From the IMG/VR virus record IMGVR_UViG_3300026484_000600: 64,000 bases of DNA; one strand, given 5' to 3'. The notes beneath the pieces were generated by a model that worked only from the letters and a program-made list of their open reading frames with translations, was not told the origin of the DNA and did not search any database. The DNA comes from a virus (lineage: Duplodnaviria > Heunggongvirae > Uroviricota > Caudoviricetes). Shown here one piece after another: positions 7 to 34,667 of this stretch. Both the position numbers and the translations under genes were made by a program. Position 1 is the first letter of the stretch. The number at the start of each line of letters is the position of its first letter.

Positions 7-999
7 TTGATGGTGGATATATTTAAGTATATATCGGAAAGAATTCCAAGTAAAAGAGGGGTGGTAGCTTTAATATCATTTATTGGTGGTGTATTACCAA
101 TACCCGGTAGAGTAACTGTTTCTGCAGGCATTTTATCAAATTTAGCTCCATGTTGTAGTGAAAATGATTGTAATCAGGGAGAAAGAAATTGTAGGAAGTC
201 TAGGTCCAAATTCGGTATTATTGATTATTTATCAACACATCATTATTATTTGTGGTCGCCTTTAGAGAAAACGGTAATTTTACCAATGGCTGCATTAGGA
301 ATAAGCTGGGGTGTATTTATAGGTTACGTATGGCCCTTAATTATAATTACATTTGTGTATATTGGTTGGTATATATTTTGGAAATTTGATGAAGATGATA
401 TAATATTAGACATATCATTTTTTGATAACTATGATATTAAACGTTTTATAACTGGTGCACTACCCTTAATTTTAAGTATAGGTCTATTAGCATTTGGTTT
501 TAACGGTGCTATAATATTTGGTATCCTTACAATTTATTATATTATACTAACAAAATCATATAATATTAAAGAATTATTTGGATATGTAAATTGGTGGTTG
601 GTATTATTATTAAGTATGATATTAATATTATCGGTATTCTTTAAAAGTCATAATACAGAAATTATAGAATTTATTAATACTCATAAAAATATATTTGATA
701 TTAATACTATGTCTGGATTAATAGCGATAAGTAGTTTTGCATTTATTTCGAGTTGGTTAATGGGTAGTAGTGGAAAGTTTGCAGGGATTGTAGCATTATT
801 AACAACTATTTATGGTGTACAATATTTAGTATGGTTTTTAGTTCTTGAATTTTTTGCTTATAACATTTCGCCAATGCATAAATGTTTATCTATTGGTAGT
901 GGATATTTTGGTACTCCAATACGTCGTTATTTTGAAGCTATAATTGGTTGGCAAATTTTATTATTGATATGGGCATTTATTACAACATTCATTGTATAA
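7..999 (+). CDS. Multi-pass membrane protein of unknown function. The N-terminus may be slightly misplaced near the window edge.
   Basis: 330-aa ORF with several long hydrophobic segments and Trp/Tyr-rich TM helices. No recognisable catalytic motif. Confidence 0.45.
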   Translation: MMVDIFKYISERIPSKRGVVALISFIGGVLPIPGRVTVSAGILSNLAPCCSENDCNQGERNCRKSRSKFGIIDYLSTHHYYLWSPLEKTVILPMAALGISWGVFIGYVWPLIIITFVYIGWYIFWKFDEDDIILDISFFDNYDIKRFITGALPLILSIGLLAFGFNGAIIFGILTIYYIILTKSYNIKELFGYVNWWLVLLLSMILILSVFFKSHNTEIIEFINTHKNIFDINTMSGLIAISSFAFISSWLMGSSGKFAGIVALLTTIYGVQYLVWFLVLEFFAYNISPMHKCLSIGSGYFGTPIRRYFEAIIGWQILLLIWAFITTFIV

Positions 1000-1035
1000 T
1001 ATATATATATAATAAGTTTTTAATGGAGTTATTAA

Positions 1036-1325
1036 TGAAAGATTTTGAAATAGGTATGCAAGTTTGGTATCAAGATGAGTGGTCTGGAAAAATTTCTACT
1101 GGAATAATTTTAAGGATTACAAATAAATTTTGTATTATTGATGTTGGTCGAGGAAATACAAAAAGAAAATCTAAACACCTATTGAAAAAATCAGAAGATG
1201 AAGCTATGTTAAAAACTATATTGGATATTAACAAGGTTATTGAAGAACAATTTAGAGTAAATATTAATGAACTTTATAAAATGTTTACTAAAATGTTGGA
1301 AAAATATCCTGAAAAATTTGTATAA
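1036..1325 (+). CDS. Hypothetical small protein. The annotated 948 start is probably an upstream extension.
   Basis: The 948..1325 ORF has an internal ATG at about 1036 (MKDFEIG...) preceded by a GGAG at about 1024. The upstream part overlaps the end of the preceding gene. Confidence 0.4.
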
Positions 1326-1348: not shown

Positions 1349-1624
1349 ATGAATTTTGAACCATTAGGAACTAGAGTAGCAGTAAAAGTAGAGGAAGCTC
1401 AAAAAACAACAGCAAGCGGTATTATTATCCCTGATTCATCAAAGGAAACTCCATCATTTGGTAAAATTGTAGCATGTAATGATGATACTAAAGAGGATTT
1501 TGGTGTTGATATTGGAACAACAGTTGTCTTTGGAAAATTTTCCGGTACTGAAATTGAATTAGATAAAGAAAAATTACTAATTATTGAAATGGATGAAATA
1601 TTTGGTATCATTCGTAATGATTAG
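1349..1624 (+). CDS. groES: GroES / T4 gp31-like co-chaperonin (Hsp10)
   Basis: The 91-aa product aligns by eye with E. coli GroES along its whole length (MNxxPLxxRVxVK...SGIIIPDS...G.VxA.G...VKVGDxVxF). RBS AAAGGA upstream. Confidence 0.85.
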   Translation: MNFEPLGTRVAVKVEEAQKTTASGIIIPDSSKETPSFGKIVACNDDTKEDFGVDIGTTVVFGKFSGTEIELDKEKLLIIEMDEIFGIIRND

Positions 1625-2497: not shown

Positions 2498-2522
2498 AGA
2501 GGAATTATACCTCTCTAATTTT
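2496..2522. terminator. Bidirectional intrinsic terminator hairpin between convergent genes
   Basis: agagagg-aattata-cctctct, a perfect 7-bp GC-containing stem flanked by A/T runs. It sits exactly between the + gene ending at 2497 and the - gene ending at 2521. Confidence 0.6.
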
Positions 2523-4334: not shown

Positions 4335-4715
4335 GGGTCCGAATTGGGATCGATGTTGCTAAAAGAAATTTAAATTGCAAGTAGAGTGATGACTTAATCA
4401 TCAAAAAAGCTTAAATGCAAACACAAAACTTTATATTCCACAGACTGCGAGAGTAGCTGCTTAATCCTCCCTTTGGGAGCCTGGAATCACTCGGTTTATT
4501 AGTTGTCTATTTACTGATAAATAATGGGTGTATAATAAAAATAGATAAGCTGAAGTTAAACTTGATACCTTTAGACGAAAATTATATCGAGTACCTTTAA
4601 TACAGATTTGTTTGGTTATCTAAGTATTAAAGTATTAAGAATCAAACTAAACTTGTAAATGAGATTTAGATGGAAGTAGTGGCAGACCCGAGTTCAATTC
4701 TCGGCGGATCCACCA
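4335..4715 (+). ncRNA. ssrA: tmRNA (SsrA), one-piece, about 381 nt
   Basis: The 5' GGGUCCG pairs with the 3' CGGAUCC-A-CCA, giving a 7-bp acceptor stem with G3:U70 and a CCA end at 4713-4715. A T-arm lies at 4688-4704 (ccgag-UUCAAUU-cucgg). A GGAUCGAUG 5' element resembles the E. coli GGAUUCGACG. The internal tag ORF starts at resume codon GCA (4417) and runs to UAA (4462-4464), encoding ANTKLYIPQTARVAA, followed by a CUCCC...GGGAG hairpin. SmpB is encoded at 23006-23455. Confidence 0.8.
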
Positions 4716-4869: not shown

Positions 4870-6273
4870 TTAATCATCCTCAATTTTTATTTCAAGCTCT
4901 TTGTCAAAACCTAATTTTTTAAGGTATTGTTTAGCCATTTCTAAACGTCTACATTCAAATTTAACTCTATCTATAACTTGTTTTTCAACTTCTTCAATAT
5001 TTTTACCATTTGCGAAACTCATTATATATGGGAAAGAACCTTTATCATCCTTAAATTTTAATGCTAAATCCTTTTTATTTCCATTCCATGAATTTTTAAA
5101 TTTGGTTTCTGCATCAGACACTATATGATTGACATGATTAACTATAATTTCAGAGATGCTATCAATAAAATCCCGTTCTTCTACATTTTCTTCTGGTATC
5201 ATTGCTATAGTATCATCGATTGTTTCATCTAAAACTTTTTCAACAATTTTATGTTCTTTTAAACCATCAGTTAAAATACCATGTAGTGACATATACCAAT
5301 CAGTTTTTACTTTAGCCATCTTACCATTTTCAAATGTGATTACCCAACCTTCTTTATCTTCAACAGTTTCTTTTAATTTAAGTAACTCATCTAATGTATA
5401 TAAAGGTTCTTGTTCAGCTGTTAATACATTGAATGCTTTTACTAATGTATGATCATATATATTTAGATATAAACCGTCATTATTTTCATCCCGTAGTTGT
5501 AGTAATTTAAGTGATGTTTCAGGATATGATAACACTATCTTATTAAACGGAGAAACTATTTCAAAGATTGCAGCATAGCCAAATTCTAAGGTTGCTAAAA
5601 TAAATGCTTTAAGTTTAGGATCTTTTTCAACTATTTCCATAGCTAATTTACATTGTTCCGCTTCAAATGAAAATTTTGTTTTAGCTACTAATTCTCCTTC
5701 TATTAAAAGAAATCTAATTGCAGAACCATCCTCTTTATTTGCAACTCTCACTATTTCTAAATCTTTTACATCTTCATACATCCAAGAATTTTCAGGCTTC
5801 AATGTTGGTAACACCTTTTTATCTAATGATAAAATCTTAAAAAAGTCTCCGTGAGTCTCGTTGTTTCTATCAAATTCAGCAACAGTCATATTTAATTTTA
5901 AATCTATTGCTCTATACGTTTTATCGTTTTCATCAACAAAAAGTTTATTAATATTACAAATTTCAGAATGATTATTAATAGAAAGTTCCATATTTGTTAT
6001 ATTAGTTCCATTTGTTTGACCAATATTAAAAAATTTATCGATGAATAGATATGTTTTCCAATCGGAATTTTGAGCTTTTACAAATGTTATACCTCTTAAT
6101 TCTGTGGCTCTAACCATAGAACCATCTAATTTTGCATCAAAAAAATCACCTGCATTTGCTAAAAAATAAGTACACATTGCAATTTCTGTATTGCCTATTT
6201 TTTGATGTTTCATTTTGAAAGTTTCATTTATTTTTGTGATTTCTAATACTTCATTGTAAGTTAATAAAGCCAT
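4870..6273 (-). CDS. rnlA: RNA ligase 1 (T4 RnlA family, tRNA repair ligase)
   Basis: ELRGITF and KFFNIGQ match T4 Rnl1 ECRGIMF and KFFNLNE. Nucleotidyltransferase motif I KEDGS (T4 K99 EDGSL). 467 aa. Confidence 0.75.
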   Translation of the reverse strand: MALLTYNEVLEITKINETFKMKHQKIGNTEIAMCTYFLANAGDFFDAKLDGSMVRATELRGITFVKAQNSDWKTYLFIDKFFNIGQTNGTNITNMELSINNHSEICNINKLFVDENDKTYRAIDLKLNMTVAEFDRNNETHGDFFKILSLDKKVLPTLKPENSWMYEDVKDLEIVRVANKEDGSAIRFLLIEGELVAKTKFSFEAEQCKLAMEIVEKDPKLKAFILATLEFGYAAIFEIVSPFNKIVLSYPETSLKLLQLRDENNDGLYLNIYDHTLVKAFNVLTAEQEPLYTLDELLKLKETVEDKEGWVITFENGKMAKVKTDWYMSLHGILTDGLKEHKIVEKVLDETIDDTIAMIPEENVEERDFIDSISEIIVNHVNHIVSDAETKFKNSWNGNKKDLALKFKDDKGSFPYIMSFANGKNIEEVEKQVIDRVKFECRRLEMAKQYLKKLGFDKELEIKIEDD

Positions 6274-8917: not shown

Positions 8918-9185
8918 TATTAGTACGGTTTAATGTTTTGTGCGCAAGTTTTATAAACTCAAATGACACATCATCAGGATGAATTTTAAAACCATATTCA
9001 TCTTCAAATTTTTTAGTCCATAAACTATAATGATTTCTTAATTCCATACCTAAACTAAAATGGTATATTATTAAATCGTTTTCATCGGTATTAATAAAAT
9101 CATTTAGTGGTTTAAAATCTTTAAGGTCATCTGATAGTAGAAGTTTCACAACCTCTACTAAATCTTCTGGAGGATTAGAAATCAT
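8907..9185 (-). CDS. Hypothetical protein
   Basis: 92-aa ORF, operon context. Confidence 0.4.
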   Translation of the reverse strand: MISNPPEDLVEVVKLLLSDDLKDFKPLNDFINTDENDLIIYHFSLGMELRNHYSLWTKKFEDEYGFKIHPDDVSFEFIKLAHKTLNRTNNAI

Positions 9186-10324
9186 TTATATTTCCTAGTA
9201 ATAATTTCCACTTTGTCGTCTGAAAATTGAGTAAGTTTTTCAGTCCAAGTAATAATTCTAGAGCGTTCTACAAATTCATTTTGAGCATAATCCATAGTTC
9301 CTTCAGAAATAGGTTTCAGGTATTTTTCTTTTTTAACTAAAATACCGTATTTAAATTTATCTTCGACTTCTTCCCAATCTTTACCAGTAGTTTCTTTACA
9401 GTATTTGACCTGTTCAAGACCATTTTTTCCTAATAGAGATTTATGAGAACAGTATGTTTGAGCATACATTGATCTAGAGTTCTTCTCAGAATCTCGAATT
9501 CGCCACATGATACTATTAAATGCTTCTTCTTTGGATGATACACCATAAACTCTGGCATCAAACCATGCATTGCCTACTTTTTCTTCCATAGTTTTAATGT
9601 ATTTCATAATATCTGGATTATTGGTATCAATTTCTCTATTTTCTAATTTTTGATCATATTCTTCAAACTTTTTTTCTAAAAAATTAGAAAAATGCTTATT
9701 AAACTGCATAGTAGTATAGGCCGCTATTAAAGAAGTTAATTTCTGAATTCTACCACCAAAAATCTGTTCATTTGTTGTCTCTACTTTTTTAATAATATAT
9801 TTTGATAGTACTTCTAATGATTTAGTTTCTGTTTGTATGTTTCTATTTTGCCAACAACATCGATCTATAATTTCGTCATTAGTATCAGAAACTATCCAAA
9901 AGTTGATACTAAAATATTTATCCTCCGTATCTTCATAAATTATATCTAATGAGCCAAGTAAGTTATACTCTTTATCATAAACTTTATATGATACTTCTTC
10001 TTCATCATTAAGAAAAAATAAATCTTTAACTTCAATAGGTATTAATCTTTCTTTGAATTGAGGAGCAAATACTAATGAAATTTCATCTGATTGTGTGTAA
10101 CCTGTTACTGCTCCAAATTTTTCAACGAGATTTTTGGTTGTTTCTTCCATTGTATTAGATAATATGTCATCAAATGGTTTTTTCATACCTTTTGTGTATT
10201 TACTAAATTTATGACCATCGATTCTACAAATGATAAAATCTCTTGGATCAATTACTGATTCAAATTCTTTTTCATAACCTTTAAGCCTAGTTCCTAAAGA
10301 TTCCTCTCTCATACTTTTTTTCAC
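9182..10324 (-). CDS. Thg1-like protein (tRNA-His guanylyltransferase family, 3'-5' polymerase) with a C-terminal extension
   Basis: The N-terminal 250 aa track Thg1: FIICRIDGHKFSKYTK (the RIDGxxFxxF motif), KPFDD, GYTQSDEISLVF (Thg1 GESDEYSF). 380 aa total, about 130 aa longer than Thg1. Confidence 0.7.
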   Translation of the reverse strand: MKKSMREESLGTRLKGYEKEFESVIDPRDFIICRIDGHKFSKYTKGMKKPFDDILSNTMEETTKNLVEKFGAVTGYTQSDEISLVFAPQFKERLIPIEVKDLFFLNDEEEVSYKVYDKEYNLLGSLDIIYEDTEDKYFSINFWIVSDTNDEIIDRCCWQNRNIQTETKSLEVLSKYIIKKVETTNEQIFGGRIQKLTSLIAAYTTMQFNKHFSNFLEKKFEEYDQKLENREIDTNNPDIMKYIKTMEEKVGNAWFDARVYGVSSKEEAFNSIMWRIRDSEKNSRSMYAQTYCSHKSLLGKNGLEQVKYCKETTGKDWEEVEDKFKYGILVKKEKYLKPISEGTMDYAQNEFVERSRIITWTEKLTQFSDDKVEIITRKYK

Positions 10325-11559: not shown

Positions 11560-12534
11560 TTAATAGATACCTATTTGAGTACGAGTAAGATTTGTTGTTC
11601 CGTTTCTCTTGTAACCAAGACTTTCATATCTACTAATTACATTGGCTACTTTTTGAGCACTATCAATATCAGTTGCAACCATACTAAAAAGTTTAGATTT
11701 GAACCAAGCTTTTCTCTCATCTGGAACATTAAGTGTGCCAAGGTAAATACCCATAATAGTATCTACTTCTTTGTAACTTGCTCCTAGTTGAGCTTCATCA
11801 GTATCATCTTCAGTAACCATAAGACCATCTGATGGTGGTTGGGAAATAATATCTTCTCTAACTCCAAGAGCTTTAGCGATTGCTGGAAGCTCAAAACCCT
11901 TACCAATATTTTGGATTGGTCCAAAGTCACCAACATCACCACAAATAGTCCAAAAACCCATTTGAAATTCTGAAAGGTTGTCTGTTGAAAGTACCATACC
12001 ATTTGTCTTTCTAGCAAGGTCATAAAGAGTAATCATTCTAAGTCTTGCTTTAATATTACCTTCAAGTATATTAGTTGGAAACTCTTTCGTTTTAAACCCC
12101 GCTTTCTCAGCAAGTTTATCGGTCATTGAAACGGTATTAAATACTTCCGACATCATATTAGTAGGGTCATCAAATGCTTCTGCTTCTCCACTTGTAAAGT
12201 AATCTGCATCCCAACTTTTGAATTCTTCAAAAGCCGTACAATAGTTATCTCCAACCCATTGAGCTTGTTCTTTGTGTTCATTACTTGAACTCATTGGAAT
12301 AGATATACCAATTAGAGGTACTCCTGTAAATTCTTCTTGACAAAGTGCTGCAACAACGGCACTATCAAGACCACCACTTACTCCAAGAACAAGTGATTTA
12401 AGGTTGTTCCTTTTAACATAATTTTTAACTTGTGCTCTAATATTTGAAATGACCATATTCGCCTTTTGTGTACTAGGCGTAGTTATTTCGTCTATTTTAG
12501 TTACTAGATCATTAAACGATTTGATATTATTCAT
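11560..12534 (-). CDS. nadE: NH3-dependent NAD+ synthetase
   Basis: PP-loop ATP pyrophosphatase motif LVLGVSGGLDSAVVAALC. Length and overall pattern match NadE. Confidence 0.8.
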   Translation of the reverse strand: MNNIKSFNDLVTKIDEITTPSTQKANMVISNIRAQVKNYVKRNNLKSLVLGVSGGLDSAVVAALCQEEFTGVPLIGISIPMSSSNEHKEQAQWVGDNYCTAFEEFKSWDADYFTSGEAEAFDDPTNMMSEVFNTVSMTDKLAEKAGFKTKEFPTNILEGNIKARLRMITLYDLARKTNGMVLSTDNLSEFQMGFWTICGDVGDFGPIQNIGKGFELPAIAKALGVREDIISQPPSDGLMVTEDDTDEAQLGASYKEVDTIMGIYLGTLNVPDERKAWFKSKLFSMVATDIDSAQKVANVISRYESLGYKRNGTTNLTRTQIGIY

Positions 12535-13435
12535 AATTCTGTACCTCTACTTTTTGTTTTTTGTTTTTAAGATAATCTTGCACAAACCATAATTGCCCAC
12601 ATCCGCCGCCAATATCATCTTGTCCAGCAGGATCAAATATTCTAGTATTATATCCGTCCGTTAAAAATGATTTTTCAAAATCTCTAATAGTATCTAAATT
12701 TCTACATGCACTATCTTTCATTGTTTCATCAGCTTCACAAATAACACTAAATGTGAAATTAAAAACAACTGGTGAAAATAAGTTTTTGAGATTATCTATA
12801 TCTGAAATAGAATTATTTGTTCCATCAACACAATAATTCAGATAAACTTTTCTACCTGTTTCTTTATTCCAAAGAATACCTCTATCTCTGATTTCTCTAA
12901 GAGTGTATTTCTTTTTAAATGGAATCAAGTCATTTCTTTCATCGTCATTTGATTTATGAATGCTAAACTGCAAACCCACTTTGTTAATTTCGGTTGATAA
13001 TTCGATAAAATCATTAAAAACCTCATCATTATCAATACCGATAGTTGAAATTAATAGATCGGCATTAGGATAAAGTTTATTCAATTTAATGATAGCCTCT
13101 TTAACGTTTTCATAATTAAGAAATGGTTCTCCCATACTCATAAACATTATTTGTAGTTTTTCACATCGACTGTTTATATCTTCAATATTTTTATCTTTAA
13201 AAATAGTTGTTATCTGTTCAACTATTTGATCCGACGAAATATTTTTTAAGAAATTTTTACCAGTCCCACAAAAGGTACATCCAACAGGACAACCACTTTG
13301 TACAGAACAACAAATAACAGTTCTTTTATCGAATGAACCATATTTATATAGCACACTTTCTAAAACTATTTCATCATCATTAAAAATATATTTCCAAACA
13401 TTCTCTTCTGAACTTTCTATTACTTTCATGATCAT
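12527..13435 (-). CDS. Radical SAM enzyme of the RlmN/Cfr family (rRNA/tRNA adenine C-methyltransferase-like), N-terminally truncated
   Basis: ICCSVQSGCPVGCTFCGTG matches RlmN CVSSQVGCALECKFCSTA (CxxxCxxC), with the following ISSDQIVEQI (RlmN VSEIIGQV). The C-terminal GGGCGQL matches the RlmN catalytic AACGQL. 302 aa versus about 380 for RlmN. Confidence 0.65.
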   Translation of the reverse strand: MIMKVIESSEENVWKYIFNDDEIVLESVLYKYGSFDKRTVICCSVQSGCPVGCTFCGTGKNFLKNISSDQIVEQITTIFKDKNIEDINSRCEKLQIMFMSMGEPFLNYENVKEAIIKLNKLYPNADLLISTIGIDNDEVFNDFIELSTEINKVGLQFSIHKSNDDERNDLIPFKKKYTLREIRDRGILWNKETGRKVYLNYCVDGTNNSISDIDNLKNLFSPVVFNFTFSVICEADETMKDSACRNLDTIRDFEKSFLTDGYNTRIFDPAGQDDIGGGCGQLWFVQDYLKNKKQKVEVQNYE

Positions 13436-14070
13436 TTTGCATCTCCAGAAAAGGTTACGCCTCTATTTTTCATAATATTAATATTTGTTTGGAAACTATC
13501 ATCTATTGATCCATCTGGAAATGATTTTATTCCTTCAACAGCATCCGAAAGAATATTAACTGTATAACCATTTTTGATTAAACCCATAACATTCATAAAT
13601 ACACAGTAATTTGTGGCTACACCCACAATGTCTATAATTGTTTCCTCTGGTTTAAAGGTATTTGTAAAAATAGATTTAAAGTTTGAATTTCCTTGCCAAA
13701 TATCAAAAACATCTTTTGTAAAAAACATTTCCGAATCAACTATAAATGTGTTAAATGGTATAGTTCCTTTATTGCCTCCACCATTTGCAATAAAGTTATC
13801 CCAATTTTTATATCTTGGTTTAATTTTATAAAAATTCCATCCAGTCGTCCCAAATTCACAATGAATTGAAGGAAAAATTTTAGATTCATCAGAACCACTA
13901 TATTTATCAGATGTGTGTGTATCAAAAGTATAAATTACATTTTCATATGATTCATCATGGATATAAGATTGGATATTATCAACTAATTTATCAGCATTAG
14001 GTACTGATAGAGCCCCTGTTGGGCTAGCAAAGTCAAATTGGTAGTCTACTACTATAAGTATTTTTTTCAT
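13432..14070 (-). CDS. pncA: Nicotinamidase / isochorismatase-family hydrolase (PncA-like)
   Basis: N-terminal IVVDYQFDF (catalytic Asp). Catalytic Cys context VGVATNYCV. Confidence 0.65.
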   Translation of the reverse strand: MKKILIVVDYQFDFASPTGALSVPNADKLVDNIQSYIHDESYENVIYTFDTHTSDKYSGSDESKIFPSIHCEFGTTGWNFYKIKPRYKNWDNFIANGGGNKGTIPFNTFIVDSEMFFTKDVFDIWQGNSNFKSIFTNTFKPEETIIDIVGVATNYCVFMNVMGLIKNGYTVNILSDAVEGIKSFPDGSIDDSFQTNINIMKNRGVTFSGDAK

Positions 14071-14920: not shown

Positions 14921-15195
14921 AATTTCATCCGATAAATATACAAATCATGTTACCATAGTGATTTGACTTCTATTTTTTCTTTTTATACCATTTTATTATA
15001 TAGGAGATTATTATTAAACTCATAAATCGCCTCCTAAATCAAAGATATTTTTTATAGAAGATTCAATAAATGAATTTACGTAAATAATATCCGAGTAAAA
15101 ATAAAATTTAAATAAGATCTACTAATTGAATGTAACATAATTATCTCCTTCTGTCGATATGACTAATTATTTATTAAAATTATACAAAAATGTTA

Positions 15196-17886
15196 TTATA
15201 ATCTTGGGTCGACACTTTCTTCTTTTTCATTTTCAAATAATAGATTGGCTATAATTTGTATTTGTTCTTTACTACCCATAGGAGCTTTAAGCATTTCTTC
15301 TCCTAATTTATACTCTGATATAGAAAGTCTTAATTTTTTAGAAATATTTTTTTGATTTAATAATCTATTAAATTTAATAGGGAATTTATAATCGTATCCA
15401 TAAATAATAGAAAGATATTCTTCATTTCTCACTTTTAAATATGGTGCAATCCAAGACTCTAATAATTTCACTTCGGGTTTTATTACGCAACCCTCCATAT
15501 TTTGATTTCGCACCAAATTATCATACCATTTTTCAGCTTTAATCAAATAATTTTTATCATCAAAATCAACAATATGTATATTATCTGAATTTAATAATTT
15601 AAAGTGTTTACTAGGAGTTAAATCCAAATTAATTATATTATTGTTTGATATTGCTTTCAATAATCTAAAACCTTTAAAATCAGTATTTGTATCTTCTCCA
15701 TAAAGGGTTATTTGTTTATTAAAAATTTTCCAAGCTTTTTTGTGGTCACTTAAAGGTATAAATCTATCAATTTCAAATTTTAAATCTTTATAAGAGTGAT
15801 ACTTGTGTCCATATTTTTTAACCAACTCTTTTTTAGCTAAAATATTCTTATCTTTTAAAAATTCTGATTTGTTAAATTCATCCTTTAAACTTATAAAAGC
15901 CTTATCAAATCCATTATCAAACAGAAAGTCAATTTCTGTTTGAATAGCTATATCCGCAGTCTTAAAATGGGTATCAATCAAACCTTTTCCTAAAAGAGCC
16001 CATGGTAATAATTCGCCATCTATAATTATCTCATCAGCATTATACATATCAAAAATATGCTTGTATTCTACTAATTTAGATGAGAATAATTCGGTTAAAT
16101 CTTCTCTTATTTTATATCCATTTCTACTTGTAGCATAACATTTTTTAATATTATCTTTAAAGAGATATAGTTGTGCTCTGGAACCCATATATTTAGGTTG
16201 TAGCACTACACTATCTACTTTATCCTTAAAATAATTGAGACCCATTTCTAAAGATTCTAGTGAATTATTTTCGATATTTTTATTTGTAGGGGAAATAGTA
16301 CCTCCTATATAACCTATACCATTTTTTACTATGTAATCTAATCTTCTTTGGTTATATGGATTTAAATCTTCAATAGATACTTCTTTCATAGCTTTACCTA
16401 TATCTTCAAACAGATTATTTCCAAAGTCGTTTCTTGCACTCTTAGGAGATAATGATTTTACACTTTGAATAAATGCTTTGCCATAACCTATACTATATCC
16501 AGTTAATTTTCCACCATATACACAACCTGTATCAATACAAACCTTATTTTTAAAAGATCTAACAGATGACTGACCCATATGACCGAATATATGAACCGGA
16601 TGGTTATTAATTGCTTCTTCTTTCAAATATGATGTTAATTCATCATTAGTCTTATCTTTGTTTTTACTTCTACTAGCACATTTATATTGGTGTTTTAATG
16701 AAATTCGATCCATCTTTTCAAGATATTTAACTTCACATGGTGCATGAGTAACTATAAAGCCTCTTTTATTTAATCCTATAAATTTAACCCATCCTTTCAT
16801 ATTATGAAAAATATCTAAAAACATAGATTTTAGCTCTTCATTTTTCTCTAGTAAAATTGCTGTATTATAGTATCTTTTTTTCTGATCTAATCGTTCTGGA
16901 GTAATTTCTAAATCTTTGTGATTTGTTATCCATTTCCAAACCATCTCTTCATGATTGCCCAATATTAATTGAAATCGATCTTGAAATTTTATCATATTTT
17001 TGTGTATGAATTTTATAGTTTCAGTTAAATCTTCTTCTGATGATTTATCTATTAAATCACCTGCAAAAATTAGTCCTATATTTTTTGTTTTAACAGTATC
17101 TATAATTTCATTGTCTTTAATTATAAAACCATATTTTTCAAGTAATTGTTTTAATTCTTGAATACATCCATGAACATCACCAATAGTAATCCAATCATAA
17201 GTACTATTTACTATTCTGTCAGTATATTTTTTCCAATCCCATACATCTACACTATAAACAGGCTTTAACATTGTAGGTGTTAAATCATATCGATTTTCCT
17301 GTTCCACTTCCAAAAGAAAATCTTTATTTTTAATTTTATGAATATTTTTATATATCCCTTTTTTTAATGTTTTTAATGTCTCCGTTTTTAATCTTTTTAT
17401 ATGTTTAGAAATAATTTTCCCATTGGTACTTGGACGTTGATATAGGCTTTCAGAAAAATTCTTTTGGTATTCATCAATATTTTTATAATCGAAAACTATA
17501 ATATCTACATTATAATTATTATCTTTTGCTATATCTAACACGTCGTTTCTAAATTTTTCGCTTAATCCGGTTGTATCTAAAATAACAAATTCTGCATTGA
17601 TTGGATAACTGGTAACAGCTCTTAATTTTGTAAATAGTATTTCGAATGCTTGTGTTGAACTCTCAGTCATAATTTCATCTATTTTACCATAGTTATAACC
17701 CAAAATATCTTTTCTAATATTATCGGAACTAATATATTGTATATTTGTCTTTAAATTATTATTAACATTGCCTTTATATTTTTGTAATGAAGGTATTAGA
17801 ATTTCATTAGCAAACGTCGTTTTACCAGAACCACTAGGTCCGACAAGCATTATTATGGTATGTACTTGGGTTTTAATTTTATTCAT
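15196..17886 (-). CDS. pnkp: Bacterial-type polynucleotide kinase-phosphatase Pnkp (kinase + metallophosphoesterase + ligase domains)
   Basis: N-terminal P-loop kinase (VGPSGSGKTTFAN). Central calcineurin-like phosphatase motifs (GDVHG, GDLIDKS, GNHE). C-terminal about 450 aa with a KYMGSR lysine motif, consistent with the Pnkp ligase domain. 896 aa. Confidence 0.7.
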   Translation of the reverse strand: MNKIKTQVHTIIMLVGPSGSGKTTFANEILIPSLQKYKGNVNNNLKTNIQYISSDNIRKDILGYNYGKIDEIMTESSTQAFEILFTKLRAVTSYPINAEFVILDTTGLSEKFRNDVLDIAKDNNYNVDIIVFDYKNIDEYQKNFSESLYQRPSTNGKIISKHIKRLKTETLKTLKKGIYKNIHKIKNKDFLLEVEQENRYDLTPTMLKPVYSVDVWDWKKYTDRIVNSTYDWITIGDVHGCIQELKQLLEKYGFIIKDNEIIDTVKTKNIGLIFAGDLIDKSSEEDLTETIKFIHKNMIKFQDRFQLILGNHEEMVWKWITNHKDLEITPERLDQKKRYYNTAILLEKNEELKSMFLDIFHNMKGWVKFIGLNKRGFIVTHAPCEVKYLEKMDRISLKHQYKCASRSKNKDKTNDELTSYLKEEAINNHPVHIFGHMGQSSVRSFKNKVCIDTGCVYGGKLTGYSIGYGKAFIQSVKSLSPKSARNDFGNNLFEDIGKAMKEVSIEDLNPYNQRRLDYIVKNGIGYIGGTISPTNKNIENNSLESLEMGLNYFKDKVDSVVLQPKYMGSRAQLYLFKDNIKKCYATSRNGYKIREDLTELFSSKLVEYKHIFDMYNADEIIIDGELLPWALLGKGLIDTHFKTADIAIQTEIDFLFDNGFDKAFISLKDEFNKSEFLKDKNILAKKELVKKYGHKYHSYKDLKFEIDRFIPLSDHKKAWKIFNKQITLYGEDTNTDFKGFRLLKAISNNNIINLDLTPSKHFKLLNSDNIHIVDFDDKNYLIKAEKWYDNLVRNQNMEGCVIKPEVKLLESWIAPYLKVRNEEYLSIIYGYDYKFPIKFNRLLNQKNISKKLRLSISEYKLGEEMLKAPMGSKEQIQIIANLLFENEKEESVDPRL

Positions 17887-17895
17887 AAGAATCCT

Positions 17896-18489
17896 TTATT
17901 TGAATGTATAACCATCTAACTGATAAATCGTTTGTATTTCGTCATCAGTCCATGATTTATATCTTTTCTTTACTACTTTTATTTTTTTATCAAGGTAGCT
18001 AGCTTTCATACTATTATAAGAATCACTAGAACCGCCTCTATCGATTAGAAGAGGTTGTTTTTCACCTTCTACTATCAAAATAAATATACTGTGGTTGTCA
18101 TTATACATAAGAGAAACATTTTTATCAAATGGTATTTCTTCATCAATTCGTTCTGAATGATAATAGTCATGAATTGCAGGGGATATAGCAAATGGGTAAA
18201 AAATCCCAATTAATATTATTGGCAAACCAATAATAGCAAACCAATTATAATATGCTTCATTATCCCAATGTAAATCATAATTATATTTTGAGTGTTCATT
18301 TATTCCCACATAAATAAAATGTGCAATAACGCCTATAATTAGGAATGATAAATATACTCCCCAACTACCATCCGAAAACCATGTTATAATGCCTATAACC
18401 AATGTTATGATAAATGGTATTGTGTATAGTTTTGTTCTTAGTAACGATTTGGTTTTAAACTTAGATGTTACATTGCTTTTGATATTCAT
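17896..18489 (-). CDS. Membrane protein of unknown function, encoded between hen1 and pnkp
   Basis: 197 aa with three to four predicted TM helices. Confidence 0.45.
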   Translation of the reverse strand: MNIKSNVTSKFKTKSLLRTKLYTIPFIITLVIGIITWFSDGSWGVYLSFLIIGVIAHFIYVGINEHSKYNYDLHWDNEAYYNWFAIIGLPIILIGIFYPFAISPAIHDYYHSERIDEEIPFDKNVSLMYNDNHSIFILIVEGEKQPLLIDRGGSSDSYNSMKASYLDKKIKVVKKRYKSWTDDEIQTIYQLDGYTFK

Positions 18490-18498
18490 TACAAGCCT

Positions 18499-18795
18499 TT
18501 ATATAAATTTTTCTGGAAACATCTCAATAGCTTTATCAAATGCTATCTGTGCTTCTTCAATTGTGATATTATATTTAATAGCAACTTTATCTATACTTAA
18601 ATGATTTTTCTTATTTCTAAAAATTGATATATTTCTTTCTTCGGCGGTTTTATACAGTTTATGTTCCAACGGTACTATGATATTGGTATCTTGACCTTCT
18701 ATTGAAATTGATTTCAGAAAAGAATTTCCGCTATTTTCTTCAATACCCTCAAAGAGTTCATTCTTTATAGTAATACCATAAACTAAATCAGCCAT
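18499..18795 (-). CDS. Hypothetical protein
   Basis: 98-aa ORF between hen1 and pnkp. Confidence 0.4.
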   Translation of the reverse strand: MADLVYGITIKNELFEGIEENSGNSFLKSISIEGQDTNIIVPLEHKLYKTAEERNISIFRNKKNHLSIDKVAIKYNITIEEAQIAFDKAIEMFPEKFI

Positions 18796-19673
18796 TCTGG
18801 AAATCTCCTAATAATTCTTTCCCAAACATCTTCAGGAATCTCTGATTGAAAATCATTTTTTAATGCGAATTTAATATTCTTTTCAGTCATCCATAAAAGA
18901 TCTACATCTTCTTTTTCAAAGCGCTCATATAAGAATGGACTAGCCCAAACTATAATTCGATCATCTTTTATTAAATATCCATTATTTGCAGCTTCTATAT
19001 ATTCTAAATATTCAAAAATTATATCTTCACGATCTATTCCTTTTATTTCAAGAATATTAAAAGAGTTTTTAAAATGTCCTAAAAGTTTTTCTTTTCCATC
19101 ATATTGTATCTTATCTTCAACATAGAAAATACTTTGATGGAACCCTTTACCATAGGTATCCATAACATCATAATTCATTTCGAGGGGTATATTATTGTAA
19201 AAAATATCAGTAATTACAATGTCTCCAGTACCGATATAATCTGTATCTTTTGCCTCTATTACTAATAAATCTTTATTAAAATCGTCGGTATTTTTTAAAA
19301 TTTCTGTTTCAAAAAAAATACCTTTTTCTATTGATACTGATGAAATATACCAACCATCAGATAAAAAATTATCATCATTAATATTAAGGGTTAAATCACT
19401 AATATTAATAGTATCATATTTTGAATATTCGTATTCATTAACATTAATAGAAATACTACCATCAATAGCACAACTGGAAATATGTTCTATATCATCAAAA
19501 TCATAATATTGTCTTTCCCATCCACTACTACTGAATAATGTATCAAAATGGCCAATAATTTCATTGTAATCAAAACGTCTAAGAAGTTCTTTTATATTGT
19601 TGATATGGAGCTTATTGAGCTTACCACAGCAATATTCTCCACCATATCCACCAAATGTTAATACCATTTTCAT
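18783..19673 (-). CDS. Hypothetical protein
   Basis: 296-aa ORF between hen1 and pnkp. No motif recognised. Confidence 0.45.
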   Translation of the reverse strand: MKMVLTFGGYGGEYCCGKLNKLHINNIKELLRRFDYNEIIGHFDTLFSSSGWERQYYDFDDIEHISSCAIDGSISINVNEYEYSKYDTINISDLTLNINDDNFLSDGWYISSVSIEKGIFFETEILKNTDDFNKDLLVIEAKDTDYIGTGDIVITDIFYNNIPLEMNYDVMDTYGKGFHQSIFYVEDKIQYDGKEKLLGHFKNSFNILEIKGIDREDIIFEYLEYIEAANNGYLIKDDRIIVWASPFLYERFEKEDVDLLWMTEKNIKFALKNDFQSEIPEDVWERIIRRFPEWLI

Positions 19674-20923
19674 ACCCTTTTAATTATACAACCAATACTT
19701 GTAGATATACCATTGATATTATCGCCTATTTCTATAAATTCAAAGGATAGGTTATCATTATTAAAATTAGACATAAAACTTTTAAATTCATCAAATGTAG
19801 GTTCCCAATCATGATCATCATGTCGCATTTCTCCACCTAATTCGTAAAATACGTTAAAGTCTTTATTTGGTACTGTAATGATAAACGTATCAAAATTAAT
19901 AGATGTTAGCACTAATTCTATTAATCTTTTTGATTCAACTTTTGGCATATGTTCGATAACTTCGGTTAGTATTACATCTACTAACTCATTATCGTAATCT
20001 TTTATAAAATCTTCTAGACTATTAAAGAGATTAATATTTGTAATTTCTTTTTTTGAAGCTTTTATCTTGACTGACTCTAATAGATTAGGATTAATATCAA
20101 TGGCGTTATAAAAATATTTTTCTATTTTTTTAGAAAAATCTATTGCATAAAATCCTTCTCCACACCCAATATCAATAATCGATTTATTAAATGATAATAA
20201 ACGCTCTATTCTATCTTTTCGTTGCATAGCCGTATTACCATAAGCCATATTGATATTATATCTTTTTGATTCTTCAAGTAATTGTTTATATTTTTTAAAT
20301 TGATTTTTACTTTTAATAAGATTTCTACTTACTAAATAACGTATAAAGAATGGTGCATCTAATCGATTCATAGCATTTAGGTATTTTTCAATATTTGAAT
20401 TATCTAAATGTACATAGTCGTTACTTGATAATGCAATAAAAATCATCATAAGATTAATATAATTTAATAACATGAACCAACTATTTTCAGTTGTCACCTT
20501 AATAGTATAGTTTTTCCCTACTTGTTCAGTAATTTCAATTTCAAAATCAGGGAAATATTTCTTAAAATCCATTAACTGTTTTATTCTTTTAATTTCGAGT
20601 AAATTAATATAAAAATATTTCGGGTTTTTTATATCTAATTCTGATTCTTCTCTAACAGTACTTGAAAAAAATTCACTTATTGCATTGATAATAAACATGG
20701 GCGAGTTGTATTTAGAAATATTTAGATAATCAAATTCTTGTGATCCAAAGGATACATCATTATCAGCATCCTTAAAATAGATATTAAAGTCGGTACCATT
20801 ATGAGAGTACCAGGTAAATGCAGTACCTTTACGTATACTTCTTATTTGCATAGATGAATTTGGATTTTTTTTAATAATGTATCCAAAATTTGGATCATCA
20901 GAATGTAGCTGTAAAATAGCCAT
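19670..20923 (-). CDS. hen1: Hen1-like RNA 3'-terminal 2'-O-methyltransferase (C-terminal Rossmann MTase)
   Basis: SAM-binding motif I IIDIGCGEGFYAIDF in the C-terminal half of a 417-aa protein. Bacterial Hen1 has the same architecture and partners with Pnkp, which lies 1.8 kb downstream in the same orientation. Confidence 0.55.
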   Translation of the reverse strand: MAILQLHSDDPNFGYIIKKNPNSSMQIRSIRKGTAFTWYSHNGTDFNIYFKDADNDVSFGSQEFDYLNISKYNSPMFIINAISEFFSSTVREESELDIKNPKYFYINLLEIKRIKQLMDFKKYFPDFEIEITEQVGKNYTIKVTTENSWFMLLNYINLMMIFIALSSNDYVHLDNSNIEKYLNAMNRLDAPFFIRYLVSRNLIKSKNQFKKYKQLLEESKRYNINMAYGNTAMQRKDRIERLLSFNKSIIDIGCGEGFYAIDFSKKIEKYFYNAIDINPNLLESVKIKASKKEITNINLFNSLEDFIKDYDNELVDVILTEVIEHMPKVESKRLIELVLTSINFDTFIITVPNKDFNVFYELGGEMRHDDHDWEPTFDEFKSFMSNFNNDNLSFEFIEIGDNINGISTSIGCIIKRV

Positions 20924-20977
20924 ATAATATTCCTTGTATAATTTTATACATAATTATAAAAGAAATAAACTTAAAAA

Positions 20978-21397
20978 TTAATTAACAAACCATTTATAAC
21001 CAGATTCTAATTCTTTTAATATTTTATCTGGATTATTTTCAATTATATTTGTAAATTTTTCATTAATTTTATTATTTAAAACATAATCATTTAATGGTTT
21101 AAAGACTTGCATCAAGCTGAAAATAATAAAATTTTCAGCTTCTTCTTTTGTCCAGAAACGTTTTAATTCAGTACTATAAACCGCATTATCAAAAGTTACG
21201 TTATTTGTATTATCGGAATATAAAGCAAAATTGATTTTTGGTTCTATAATTTCAAAATTGAAATTAGAATTTTTTAAATTGAATCTAACATCACATTCCC
21301 AAAATTCTAATTTCTGTTTGTATGGCTGTTTTTTAGCAATTTTACTAATTGTGGCTAACGATATTTGTGAATAAAACTGATTTTGTATTAAAGCCAT
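20978..21397 (-). CDS. Hypothetical protein
   Basis: 139-aa ORF. Confidence 0.4.
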   Translation of the reverse strand: MALIQNQFYSQISLATISKIAKKQPYKQKLEFWECDVRFNLKNSNFNFEIIEPKINFALYSDNTNNVTFDNAVYSTELKRFWTKEEAENFIIFSLMQVFKPLNDYVLNNKINEKFTNIIENNPDKILKELESGYKWFVN

Positions 21398-21405
21398 GTT
21401 AGGTT

Positions 21406-21672
21406 TTACTTATTCAATTTATTTTTAATCAATTGTTCTAAAGAATACCAAAATTCATTAAATTGACACAAATATTTGATATTTTTTTCACACATTACTT
21501 GACTAATTACAATAAATATCATATAAGCAGTATATAATACTATAGCAGTTACCATTTGGTTAGACAATACTAAATTAAACATTAAACTTAGAATACATCC
21601 TAAAACGGCTGCACCAATATAACCCAAAAAACTATTATTCGTAGAATTTAATAAATCTGATTTATAACTCAT
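21406..21672 (-). CDS. Small hydrophobic membrane protein
   Basis: 88 aa, two hydrophobic helices. Confidence 0.4.
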   Translation of the reverse strand: MSYKSDLLNSTNNSFLGYIGAAVLGCILSLMFNLVLSNQMVTAIVLYTAYMIFIVISQVMCEKNIKYLCQFNEFWYSLEQLIKNKLNK

Positions 21673-23005: not shown

Positions 23006-23455
23006 TTAGAATTTTTTTAATGTTCTTTCCATATCTCGCTTGATATCACGCTCTTTAATAGTTTGTTTTTTATTATATGTTTTTTTGCCCTTAGCTAATG
23101 CCAACTGTACTTTTATTTTTTTTGTACCTTCTCGTTGATAAATTGATAAAATAATTAAAGTCAGTCCCTGTTCTTTTAATTTGCTTTTGAGTTTTAAAAT
23201 CTCTTTCTTATGCATTAATAATTTTCTATCTTGCACTTCATCAAATATTGCATAGGATGGTATGTATGTTGGATTTGAAATATGAGCTTGAGTTAAAAAT
23301 AACTCATTATTTTTCATTTTGACGTAGCTTTCTTTAAGAGAAATCGTACTATCTCTTACAGCTTTTACTTCACCACCCGACAGTACAATCCCTGCTTCAA
23401 ATGTTTCTATGATTTCATAATTAAATCTAGCTTTTTTATTTTGAGCATAAGTCAT
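23006..23455 (-). CDS. smpB: SsrA-binding protein SmpB
   Basis: NKKARFNYEIIETFEAGIVLSGGEVKAVR matches E. coli SmpB [29 protein letters not shown]. The C-terminal LALAKGKKTYNKKQTIKERD matches VAKGKKQHDKRSDIKERE. 149 aa. Confidence 0.85.
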   Translation of the reverse strand: MTYAQNKKARFNYEIIETFEAGIVLSGGEVKAVRDSTISLKESYVKMKNNELFLTQAHISNPTYIPSYAIFDEVQDRKLLMHKKEILKLKSKLKEQGLTLIILSIYQREGTKKIKVQLALAKGKKTYNKKQTIKERDIKRDMERTLKKF

Positions 23456-23655: not shown

Positions 23656-23945
23656 TAATCTAATTCCACCGAGAAATAATTTAATAGATATACCATATAT
23701 TCAGCTTCAAATTCATATTTATCATCGGAATGAATTAATTGATATAGCTTCTTAAATGGCAATTCATTTTTATTTGTCTTTATTTTATGTAAATCCTTAA
23801 ATTTATCTCTGTGCGTTAATTGAAATAAACTAAAAATTTTATTTGTCAAGAATGCTTGTTCTTCATATGATAAAATTCTATTTTTATAGATTATTTGTGG
23901 AAAATCATCTATGGATTTATCATAGCCATTTGTCCATAACTTCAT
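23655..23945 (-). CDS. Hypothetical protein
   Basis: 96-aa ORF. Confidence 0.4.
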   Translation of the reverse strand: MKLWTNGYDKSIDDFPQIIYKNRILSYEEQAFLTNKIFSLFQLTHRDKFKDLHKIKTNKNELPFKKLYQLIHSDDKYEFEAEYMVYLLNYFSVELD

Positions 23946-24490
23946 AATTCACCTTTTATAATGTCTTTATATTTTTTAATTAACTTACTATCTAATTTCA
24001 CTCGTATTTTAGTTTCGCCACCTAGACACTTACCTGCACCAGTCGATAAATTTAATAAGCCATTTCTATTTTCAAAAGCAGCTTCAACAGCACCCAATTG
24101 ATAATCTCTTAATATTACAGGATTACCATCAAATTCATAGTCTGAGAATATATCGTCTTTTATACCATCTTCAAAAAAATCATTTAATGGTAAAAAATGT
24201 TCCATTACTTCACTACTCATAGTAACTTTCTTTTTTTGTACTTCTGTTAAATATTCTACAACTTCTGAGAATAAACCCATTGGGAATGATCCATCGGCCT
24301 GTACTAATTTAACTTGAACTCCTTTGATTCCCATAAGCCTAAACCTAGGCTGAAATTTATAACCCGGTGGTAAGAATGCAAATTTTTGTTGGACATGATA
24401 TAACATACTAGACGAAATTTTATTTAATACAAATGTTGCTGAATCTCTTTTTGTGATATGGATTGGAATATTTTTCTTTTTTTTAGCCAT
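23942..24490 (-). CDS. uvsW: UvsW-like SF2 helicase N-terminal fragment (N-extein ending in Walker A GAGK) fused to a 28-aa split-intein N-fragment
   Basis: GYKFQPRFR matches T4 UvsW GYRFNPRFR. LRDYQ...GLLNLSTGAGK matches UvsW HWYQ...ILNLPTSAGKS. The ORF then continues CLGGETKIRVKL... (intein block A, Cys1) for 28 aa and stops. Confidence 0.75.
   Translation of the reverse strand: MAKKKKNIPIHITKRDSATFVLNKISSSMLYHVQQKFAFLPPGYKFQPRFRLMGIKGVQVKLVQADGSFPMGLFSEVVEYLTEVQKKKVTMSSEVMEHFLPLNDFFEDGIKDDIFSDYEFDGNPVILRDYQLGAVEAAFENRNGLLNLSTGAGKCLGGETKIRVKLDSKLIKKYKDIIKGEL
23945..24028 (-). mobile_element. Short IntN (block A only) of an atypically split intein inserted in the helicase P-loop
   Basis: CLGGETKIRVKLDSKLIKKYKDIIKGEL immediately after GAGK. 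The partner IntC is at 41995-42414. Confidence 0.65.
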
Positions 24491-32489: not shown

Positions 32490-34667
32490 TTAAATATTAT
32501 TTTTTATGAATTTTTTAAGATTATCTAATGTTAAGGGTTTTGAAAAATAATAACCTTGATAAAAATCACAACCTAATCTATCAAGAATTTCTTTTTGTTT
32601 TGAATTTTCAATTCCTTCCGCTATAATAATAGTGTTGAAAATTTTACTCATTTTAATAATTACTTCAGCCATACTTTTAGAGATATTATCATGTACAATA
32701 TCATCAACAAATGCTTTATCAATCTTTATTTCATCAATAGTTAAATTTTTAACAGATGATAATGATGAGTATCCTGTTCCGAAATCATCAATAGATATTT
32801 TCACTCCTAATTGATGTAACCCATCTATTATTTGTTCCATATGAGTTAAATCCAAAATAAATAGATTTTCGGTTACTTCTAATGTAATATTATGTGGGTT
32901 AATATTAAATTGATTCATTTTATTTTTAATTTTTTGGACAAAACCATCTTCCATAAATTGTTTGATTGAAATATTGATTGAAATATTAAAATCCTTTGGA
33001 ACTATTTTTTTAAATTTATTAATATCATTAAATACATAATCTAAAATATAATCACCCAAAATAATTATATTTTCATTCTTTTCAGCAATTTTAATAAATG
33101 TTTCAGGACTTATTTGACCTAATTTTGAATTGTTCCATCGAACTAATGCTTCTACACCCACTATTTTATTTTTAGTATTTAGTTGTGGTTGATACACCAT
33201 GAATATCTCTTTTAAAATAATACCTTCCAATAATTTATTTTCTATTAAATGTTCTTCTTTAAAGGTTTCTTCTATATTTTTATCATAGAATACAATAGTA
33301 TTTTGTTTTTCTTTTGCTTTATATAAAGCTAAATCAGCTTTATATTTTACACTATGAAGATCTTCAAATCCCTCACATTGTGCAATACCAATACTCATAG
33401 TAGTTTTATGTTCATATTTGAATTTATCATTAGTTATATTTAATAAACTTTTAGCAAAACTTATCACCTTTTCTTTGTTCATTTCTCTAGTAATAATTAT
33501 AAATTCATCTCCACTAAAACGTATCAGCAAATCATCAGAAGAAATATTTTTTTTAAGTTCTGTTGCTATGGAAATCAAGAAATTATCACCGTAATTGTGT
33601 CCAAAGTTATCATTTATAAATTTAAAATTATCTAAATCTAAAAACAACATACTATAATGTTTATAATTGACTATTTTTTTATTTAGGTAATATCTATTTC
33701 CAACGTGTGTTAATGGATCATGAATAGAAATATATTCTAATTCATTTTTTCGTTCATTATTAATTTTATTAATAATGAACATCATTATAATAAAACTTAT
33801 ATTAAAAGCAAACCAAATAGATACTGCATTTATTAACCAATCATTTTTTAAAGAATCTATAATTTTTGAAGGGAACCCTATAACGAGCCATAGATCATAT
33901 CTTTCAATAAATTTTACACCGACCTTATATTTTGTATTATTTAATGATGTAGTGGTTAATGATATTTGATTTGTTTTTTTAAATAAATTATGTACATCGA
34001 TTTTTATAATAGAATCTATTTTAAAATCATTAATATTTGAATATTGAATTCTAGAGGAATTATTTTTAATTAATAAAATTATAGAATCATTGTGTATTTT
34101 ATTTGTAAATAAATTAGAAAATGACTTATTTATATTAATATCTACTGCAAGTACACCATACACTTTTGAATTTTTCCTAATACTTTTTCTTATTGGGATT
34201 ATTAGTTGGTTTGTTGGTCTAAATAAATATGAACGTCCTAAAATTGATGACTTGCATTTTAACGTTTTAAGAAATGACTCTTTAGTTTTTGGATTGGAGA
34301 TAAAATTAGGTATCTTTTTTACATCAACATTCGACGAATTTATTAATATGTCTCCATCGGGCGATATAAAACCATACCCTACTGCATCAGGTTCCAATTC
34401 TAACGCCATATTCAAATATTTTTGCTTATTGGGATAGGTTAAAATATTATTTCCTAACATTGTAAGTATGTTATTATATTTGTTAAATACATCTTCGGAT
34501 GCAATAGACAAAATACTTAGTTCGTGAAGAATCTTATTATCAATTTCATCCATAATATCTTTATTATTTGATTTATAACTAAAATAAAATATAATAGAAG
34601 TAGATATAATAACAAAAGCGATAACTAATAAACTTCCTAATTTTTCTAAAAAATATTTAATATTCAT
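32490..34667 (-). CDS. Membrane sensor protein with GGDEF (degenerate SGDEF) and EAL domains (c-di-GMP phosphodiesterase, possibly also cyclase)
   Basis: N-terminal TM, a periplasmic-like region and a second TM. The GGDEF region carries LFLDLDNFKFINDNFGH and RFSGDEFIII. The EAL domain carries YQPQ, EALVRW, DDFGTGYSSL and KIDKAFV signatures. Confidence 0.75.
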   Translation of the reverse strand: MNIKYFLEKLGSLLVIAFVIISTSIIFYFSYKSNNKDIMDEIDNKILHELSILSIASEDVFNKYNNILTMLGNNILTYPNKQKYLNMALELEPDAVGYGFISPDGDILINSSNVDVKKIPNFISNPKTKESFLKTLKCKSSILGRSYLFRPTNQLIIPIRKSIRKNSKVYGVLAVDININKSFSNLFTNKIHNDSIILLIKNNSSRIQYSNINDFKIDSIIKIDVHNLFKKTNQISLTTTSLNNTKYKVGVKFIERYDLWLVIGFPSKIIDSLKNDWLINAVSIWFAFNISFIIMMFIINKINNERKNELEYISIHDPLTHVGNRYYLNKKIVNYKHYSMLFLDLDNFKFINDNFGHNYGDNFLISIATELKKNISSDDLLIRFSGDEFIIITREMNKEKVISFAKSLLNITNDKFKYEHKTTMSIGIAQCEGFEDLHSVKYKADLALYKAKEKQNTIVFYDKNIEETFKEEHLIENKLLEGIILKEIFMVYQPQLNTKNKIVGVEALVRWNNSKLGQISPETFIKIAEKNENIIILGDYILDYVFNDINKFKKIVPKDFNISINISIKQFMEDGFVQKIKNKMNQFNINPHNITLEVTENLFILDLTHMEQIIDGLHQLGVKISIDDFGTGYSSLSSVKNLTIDEIKIDKAFVDDIVHDNISKSMAEVIIKMSKIFNTIIIAEGIENSKQKEILDRLGCDFYQGYYFSKPLTLDNLKKFIKNNI

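Follow-up and report, generated by a model that had tools for sequence, protein, structure and literature searches.

The 64,000-nucleotide (nt) stretch of DNA analysed here (hereafter the window; Caudoviricetes record IMGVR_UViG_3300026484_000600) comes from a jumbo phage rich in AT (~25% GC) and encodes Pnkp and Hen1, the two proteins of an RNA repair machine. An open reading frame (ORF) scan revealed five tightly packed ORFs on the minus strand (15196-20923), in the order hen1-orfA-orfB-orfC-pnkp (Table 1), with 1.78 kb and three genes parting hen1 from pnkp on the same strand. The initial annotation had placed ORFs of 296, 98 and 197 amino acids (aa) in shared orientation between the two enzyme genes, and both their sizes and their coordinates were borne out. 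Neighbouring genes overlap at hen1/orfA (4 nt, ATGA) and at orfA/orfB (13 nt), while spacers of 9 nt each lie between orfB and orfC and between orfC and pnkp, leaving no further intergenic gaps. An AGGA/AGGAG-like motif, resembling a Shine-Dalgarno sequence, precedes every start in the block, terminator-like sites were not found between the block genes, and GC content and skew run unbroken across the block and its flanks. The earlier suggestion that short overlaps point to one transcript is strengthened by this tight packing, from which we infer that the five genes are co-transcribed. A scan for sigma-70 promoters was uninformative in such AT-rich DNA (68 sites vs 73.6 expected), and a nucleotide search with positions 15000-21500 against GenBank phages gave no match. 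What is new here is a Pnkp-Hen1 cassette in which genes of three uncharacterised families are embedded in a lineage-specific manner.

Table 1. Features of the hen1-pnkp block and of related sequence in the window (TM, transmembrane; pI, isoelectric point; AF2, AlphaFold2).
Feature	Position (nt)	Strand	Length	Description
hen1	19670..20923	minus	417 aa	RNA 3'-terminal 2'-O-methyltransferase with N-terminal Pnkp-activating domain
orfA	18783..19673	minus	296 aa	pI 4.4; beta-rich N-terminal and helical C-terminal domain
orfA N-terminal beta-rich domain	19074-19673	minus	residues ~1-200	large uncharacterised acidic phage family
orfA C-terminal helical domain	18786-19073	minus	residues ~201-296	ends in invariant RFPEWLI
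orfB	18499..18795	minus	98 aa	small soluble protein
orfC	17896..18489	minus	197 aa	membrane protein
orfC TM helices (three)	~18184-18429	minus		hydropathy and AF2 model
orfC C-terminal beta-rich domain	17899-18177	minus	residues ~105-197 (~90 residues)	conserved
pnkp	15196..17886	minus	896 aa	polynucleotide kinase, 2',3'-phosphatase and ligase
Recombinant patch	18500..18950		~0.45 kb	orfA 3' end and entire orfB; history unlike that of the flanks
orfB-like paralog	1035..1325	plus	~96 aa	ends in KYPEKFV

Both enzymes of the cassette were recognised by their domains. Hen1 matched Pfam Hen1_N over profile positions 1-221 of 222 (1.1e-65) together with the S-adenosylmethionine methyltransferase domains Methyltransf_25/31, and the motifs GCGEG, TEVIEHM and RHDDHDWEP are invariant among phage Hen1 proteins. 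Pnkp matched the Pfam kinase domain AAA_33 (5e-10) and PNKP_ligase (5e-31), as well as a PHROG polynucleotide kinase and, over its metallophosphatase, a PHROG NinI-like phosphatase (5e-23); its translation shows the motifs GPSGSGKT, GDVHGC, GNHE and KYMGSR. The NCBIfam models bacter_Hen1 and bacter_Pnkp (5e-57) were the top matches of the respective proteins, though under their equivalog cut-offs. Thus the window holds a three-domain Pnkp (kinase, metallophosphatase and ligase) and a two-part Hen1 (ligase-activating domain and methyltransferase) in a packed block on one strand, as in the bacterial system, from which it differs by divergent enzymes and by the three extra genes that replace direct pnkp/hen1 adjacency.

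To place this arrangement, IMG/VR was scanned with the Hen1 alignment, which retrieved a full-length Hen1 at about 15 loci. In every retrieved locus with both genes on the contig, pnkp immediately adjoins hen1, in either order (lineages L031, L032, L033, L034, L035, L036, L038, L040/43, L041/45 and L003). The closest outgroup, L031, has a Hen1 that is 47% identical and a hen1/pnkp gap of 17 nt. Bacterial pnkp and hen1 are always found in one operon, and their products form a heterotetramer (PMC4411300). The Xanthomonas phage XacN1, likewise a large phage with Pnkp and Hen1 among tRNA and translation-related genes, encodes them as consecutive ORFs (ORF197/ORF198; PMC5852040), whereas they are parted by orfA, orfB and orfC in the clade of the window. 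Because outgroup phages, bacteria and XacN1 all keep hen1 and pnkp together, the insertion is, as far as synteny can tell, a derived feature of one AT-rich jumbo-phage clade carrying transfer-messenger RNA (tmRNA) and SmpB, and the departure from the usual adjacency noted at the outset holds across the phage lineages as well as against the bacterial literature. The Pnkp1-Rnl-Hen1 complex (Wang et al. 2015, PMC4411300) also combines an extra protein component with a non-canonical gene arrangement; its third protein is a ligase split from Pnkp, whereas Pnkp of the window keeps its ligase domain.

The three ORFs are genuine protein-coding genes under purifying selection. Their homologs, found at 21-97% identity, conserve length and motifs, and the ratios of nonsynonymous to synonymous substitution (dN/dS) against the closest relative, a 224-kb IMG/VR contig with a 94% identical Hen1, are 0.25 for orfA, 0.41 for orfB and 0.15 for orfC; both lines of evidence argue for genes rather than chance ORFs. 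The corresponding values for Hen1 and Pnkp, which evolve more slowly, are 0.09 and 0.07. In lineages L006/L022 the three proteins are 41-49% identical to those of the window, vs 56-62% for Hen1 and Pnkp. None of the three had a match better than E 0.01 in Pfam, PHROGs, PADLOC or NCBIfam, profile searches against PDB sequences gave no match, and neither a ligase match nor a resemblance to any known enzyme was found in the Pfam, NCBIfam and PDB searches.

The first of the three, orfA, combines two domains of different distribution. For orfA, 9 close homologs were found, along with about 11 full-length and roughly 95 more distant relatives. When 1.84 billion representative proteins were searched with a profile, 106 relatives were retrieved, most of which are 180-250-aa proteins that match the N-terminal domain only. 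This family shares the motifs GYGGE, DDIxH, SxEKGxF, YDGxxLE and GKGF and is extremely acidic (median pI 4.07; orfA, 4.4), and the AF2 model of orfA is confident. Neither a Pfam scan of 70 family members (no recurrent family) nor a PHROG scan of the remote homologs (no match) assigned it further. At 0 of 52 IMG/VR loci was Hen1 or Pnkp found within 6 kb of an N-domain gene, and the neighbourhoods are mixed: some hold capsid, scaffold and tail-fibre-like genes, others a T4-like replication module. Since these neighbourhoods are heterogeneous and free of both enzymes, orfA is, on genomic context, a member of a broad family unrelated to RNA repair.

A different history was revealed for orfB, whose family of 22 proteins has an invariant N-terminal YGIT and an invariant C-terminal FPEKFI. 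The protein is 56% identical to its counterpart in L001, though the neighbouring genes of L001 are 82-94% identical; conversely, it is 87-97% identical to those of L010, L021 and P0120, though their neighbouring genes are only 31-61% identical. Its synonymous divergence (dS) of 1.04 is two to three times that of the neighbours (0.35-0.60). Sliding nucleotide identity between the window and L001 is ~0.85-0.93 in the flanks and 0.49-0.70 in the patch of Table 1, and the comparison with L010 gives the reverse picture (~0.5-0.65 in the flanks, 0.88-0.93 in the patch). Judging by these identities, orfB is mosaic, the fastest-evolving gene of the block and one exchanged between lineages. A paralog elsewhere in the window was detected among 1129 ORFs by the hidden Markov model (HMM) of the orfB family (E 2.9e-5, HMM positions 62-97), and it sits between a multi-TM ORF (7-999, plus strand) and GroES (1349-1624, plus strand; Cpn10 4.8e-21). 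Hence an orfB-like gene adjoins a membrane-protein gene twice in this genome, once beside orfC and once beside ORF 7-999. The proteins orfA and orfB end in a common invariant motif, FPE(W/K)(L/F)I, and orfB resembles the C-terminal domain of orfA weakly (BLASTP E 6e-4; hhalign E 0.002, probability 13%). Homology of the two was considered and set aside as the family HMMs failed to confirm it (E 0.5-5), and only the terminal motif is claimed as common.

For orfC, the initial annotation had proposed a protein with four TM segments, which did not hold up. Hydropathy revealed three hydrophobic helices at about residues 21-39, 45-63 and 84-102, and an AF2 model of modest confidence (mean predicted local distance difference test, pLDDT, 68.5) placed helices at 14-38, 43-74 and 83-110. 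The N-terminus is rich in lysine and arginine (K/R), and an acidic segment follows the third TM helix. Because the positive-inside rule, applied to the K/R-rich N-terminus and three helices, puts the conserved C-terminal domain outside the cytoplasm, orfC is predicted to be an inner-membrane protein with a cytoplasmic N-terminus, three TM helices and an outward-facing C-terminal domain. A Foldseek search of the model against BFVD returned nothing below E 0.1. Five close homologs were found, along with divergent copies detected by HMM, and the family is duplicated in tandem in L028 and L056. It diverges much faster than Pnkp, with identities to the window of 22-49% vs 58-68%. The first six residues of orfC, MNIKSN (18472-18489, minus strand), are essentially invariant among homologs that are ~43% identical overall, and one homolog is annotated with a GTG/Val start; this invariance might stem from constrained translation initiation or from a targeting signal.

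Comparison of related loci showed how the three genes come and go. The complete order hen1-orfA-orfB-orfC-pnkp is kept in the window, L001, L005, L006, L010, L018/L024 and L022, at 40-60% protein identity. An extra 70-aa ORF stands between orfB and orfC in L011, and an unrelated multi-TM protein between Hen1 and orfA in L016. In L026, which lacks orfA, the order is Hen1-B'-C'-Pnkp, and in L056, which lacks orfB and carries two orfC paralogs, it is Hen1-A'-C2-C-Pnkp. L028 shows C''-C'-B' followed by three reverse-strand genes and then Pnkp. L009 retains the usual flanking genes and orfA, without Hen1, orfB, orfC and Pnkp; since it is nested beside L005, which has the full cassette, in a neighbour-joining tree of SmpB (77.5% bootstrap), its state looks like a secondary loss. 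Searching viral, metagenome and genome collections for further members of the clade gained only a few loci. An orfC gene lies directly upstream of pnkp wherever the junction was captured, in at least 10 lineages of the clade (the window, L001, L005, L006, L010, L011, L018/24, L022, L026, L054 and L056), and orfC is absent from all outgroup Pnkp-Hen1 phages and from L009. In this synteny orfA and orfB are thus variable, and orfC is constant beside pnkp. Because such natural variants break the trio apart, with orfA found alone in L009 and missing from L026, and orfB missing from L056 and present as a paralog elsewhere in the window, the trio is, by comparative evidence, not a single unit, and orfA and orfB are not obligatory partners of the repair enzymes.

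We consider it somewhat probable that orfA, orfB and orfC are separable, co-transcribed accessory modules or cargo. This explanation, one of those raised in the initial annotation, is favoured because faster evolution, duplication, recombination and lineage restriction typify accessory cargo genes, and by the separable gain and loss of the three. On such a model, the ancestor of a single clade of AT-rich jumbo/mega phages would have gained the three genes at the hen1/pnkp junction, and they would now ride the hen1-pnkp transcript as separable modules (orfA alone; orfB and orfC), without being obligatory subunits of the Pnkp-Hen1 heterotetramer. The orfA protein, a widespread acidic phage domain joined to a clade-specific helical tail domain, would act independently of RNA repair, possibly by binding or titrating a host or phage factor. 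The small cytoplasmic orfB, whose family is represented more than once in a genome, and orfC might serve an envelope function such as exclusion or protection in the phase of infection in which RNA repair takes place. 'Moron'-like phage genes, T4 Imm/Sp and holin/antiholin pairs resemble the three in evolutionary behaviour only, that is, as small, fast-evolving, lineage-specific, recombining and duplicated genes in a conserved operon, among them one for a membrane protein with a domain predicted to lie outside the cytoplasm. No sequence or fold similarity of the three proteins to T4 Imm/Sp or holin/antiholin-type proteins was found in PHROGs and PADLOC or, for orfC, in BFVD.

Several observations weigh against the cargo explanation. 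The co-transcription on which it draws is deduced from gene spacing alone, and the topology of orfC from the positive-inside rule and a model of pLDDT 68.5; were the C-terminal domain of orfC cytoplasmic, it could bind the repair enzymes. The dense RNA-maintenance island around the block, with a TROVE/Ro60-like gene, tmRNA, a T4 Rnl1-like ligase, a Thg1-like enzyme, NAD synthase and SmpB, points to RNA biology through guilt by association. Most directly, orfC stands immediately upstream of pnkp at every captured junction, and orfB and orfC are both absent from L009, the sole relative without Pnkp and Hen1, patterns that a true partnership would also produce. They are the main grounds for the strongest rival, namely that orfC, perhaps with orfB, is a true accessory of phage Pnkp-Hen1 (a membrane tether, gate or sensor) with orfA as an unrelated passenger, which we regard as possible though improbable. 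In the same direction, orfA stays behind in L009 while orfB and orfC vanish together with both enzymes, orfB-like and orfC-like genes are still near pnkp in the rearranged L028, and the 9-nt spacing between orfC and pnkp is compatible with translational coupling. The co-occurrence of orfC and pnkp is, however, confounded by inherited gene order, which can equally explain the pattern, and the co-loss in L009 amounts to a single event affecting contiguous genes. All other phage lineages found, as well as bacteria (PMC4411300), run Pnkp-Hen1 without orfC or orfB; B' and C' of L028 are parted from pnkp by three genes, and L056 dispenses with orfB. The tandem duplication and rapid divergence of orfC relative to Pnkp also speak against this rival, and the predicted extracytoplasmic position of its conserved domain argues against direct binding. 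Of the earlier proposal that the intervening genes are accessory components of the repair complex, the part concerning orfA and orfB is thus undercut by L009, L026, L056, the 52 unlinked loci and the orfB paralog, and it survives only for orfC with or without orfB. As for the suggested membrane anchor, orfC does co-occur with pnkp throughout the clade, which inherited order explains as well, and its domain is predicted to face outward. A version of this rival in which orfC sits in the membrane as a partner of phage Pnkp-Hen1 and, with help from orfB, tethers or gates that machine and thereby couples tRNA repair to the cell envelope appears rather unlikely.

A single multi-subunit add-on of the repair complex formed by orfA, orfB and orfC together, as the initial annotation chiefly had it, is very unlikely. 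Their order is conserved in about 7 divergent lineages, orfA and orfB share their tail motif along with weak similarity, and the 3' end of orfA was exchanged with all of orfB as one patch. Nevertheless, orfA persists without repair genes in L009 and is missing in L026, orfB is missing in L056, the domain family of orfA is unlinked to Hen1/Pnkp at 52 loci, and the family HMMs leave orfA-orfB homology unconfirmed. Still less credible is a selfish mobile element (homing endonuclease, intron or transposon cargo). The locus does tolerate insertions, as seen in the split pnkp of L002/L032, the TnpB gene near the block of L026 and the reverse-strand block of L028, but nuclease, integrase and transposase domains were not found in the three proteins by Pfam, PHROGs, PADLOC and NCBIfam, a repeat search for insertion scars gave no flanking repeats above the AT-rich background, GC content and skew are continuous, and purifying selection acts on all three genes across deep divergence. 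That the ORFs are non-functional filler or mis-called frames is barely conceivable, for although they match no database family and AT-rich genomes yield long chance ORFs, their conserved homologs, their dN/dS values and the confident AF2 model of orfA speak against it; a mobile element or non-coding filler can be considered essentially excluded.

The surroundings of the block, in the window and in its relatives, yielded further observations. Parts of the RNA-maintenance island lie at 2521-4020 (minus), 4335-4715 (plus), 4870-6273 (minus), 9182-10324 (minus) and 23006-23455 (minus). The tmRNA tag of the window reads ANTKLYIPQTARVAA, and an Rfam scan found only the tmRNA, with no Y RNA next to the Ro-like gene. 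Near the Hen1-A-C-C-Pnkp block of the divergent L056 lie genes for RlaP (an RNA-ligase-associated nucleotidyltransferase of the Pol-beta type), a T4 Rnl1-like ligase and a NUDIX protein (390-1166, 19117-20301 and 20597-20894), and the RNA-repair gene set is broad and variable in the clade, of which another member sits on a 496-kb contig. In the distant jumbo phage L002/L032 (IMGVR_UViG_3300028361_000012, ~12080-13550), pnkp breaks off after about codon 256, where ~1.4 kb with a reverse-strand 348-aa endonuclease-like ORF intervene, perhaps as an intron or homing element. In L026, pnkp is directly followed by a PAS-GGDEF-EAL gene, and an inserted TnpB (IS605 OrfB) gene lies upstream of hen1; phage-encoded GGDEF-EAL proteins of cyclic-di-GMP turnover are present both there (11658-13259) and in the window (32490-34667, minus). 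L054 (QMNM01000078.1) is a 6.9-kb orfC-Pnkp contig binned in a 'Candidatus Cloacimonadota' metagenome-assembled genome from the Guaymas Basin, probably because phage DNA was mis-binned with a bacterial genome, although it could also hint at the host.

Inteins were also encountered in the window. A UvsW_N fragment (23942-24490, minus) ends in '...GAGKCLGGETKIRV', resembling an intein start, and a ResIII/Helicase_C ORF located 18 kb away (41995-43404, plus) opens with the C-terminal part of an intein splicing domain. Together, these features suggest a split-intein UvsW helicase that would be joined by trans-splicing. A DnaB-like helicase ORF (37868-39289, minus) likewise has an intein N-part at its end.

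Although the two-protein RNA repair machine Pnkp-Hen1 has been well studied, its natural substrates and cellular context are unknown (PMC4411300). The genes long kept in its operon in this clade, above all that of the membrane protein orfC, are concrete candidates for localising or regulating RNA repair during infection, and the analysis defines three uncharacterised protein families, one of them large, very acidic and without a PDB fold match. If orfC did serve as a tether, it could link tRNA repair to the envelope, for instance where imported tRNase toxins enter the cell, and would represent the first membrane-associated RNA-repair system and a new class of Pnkp-Hen1 subunit. If the three genes are only passengers, the locus would show how operons of jumbo phages take up and exchange genes without disrupting a complex-forming enzyme pair.

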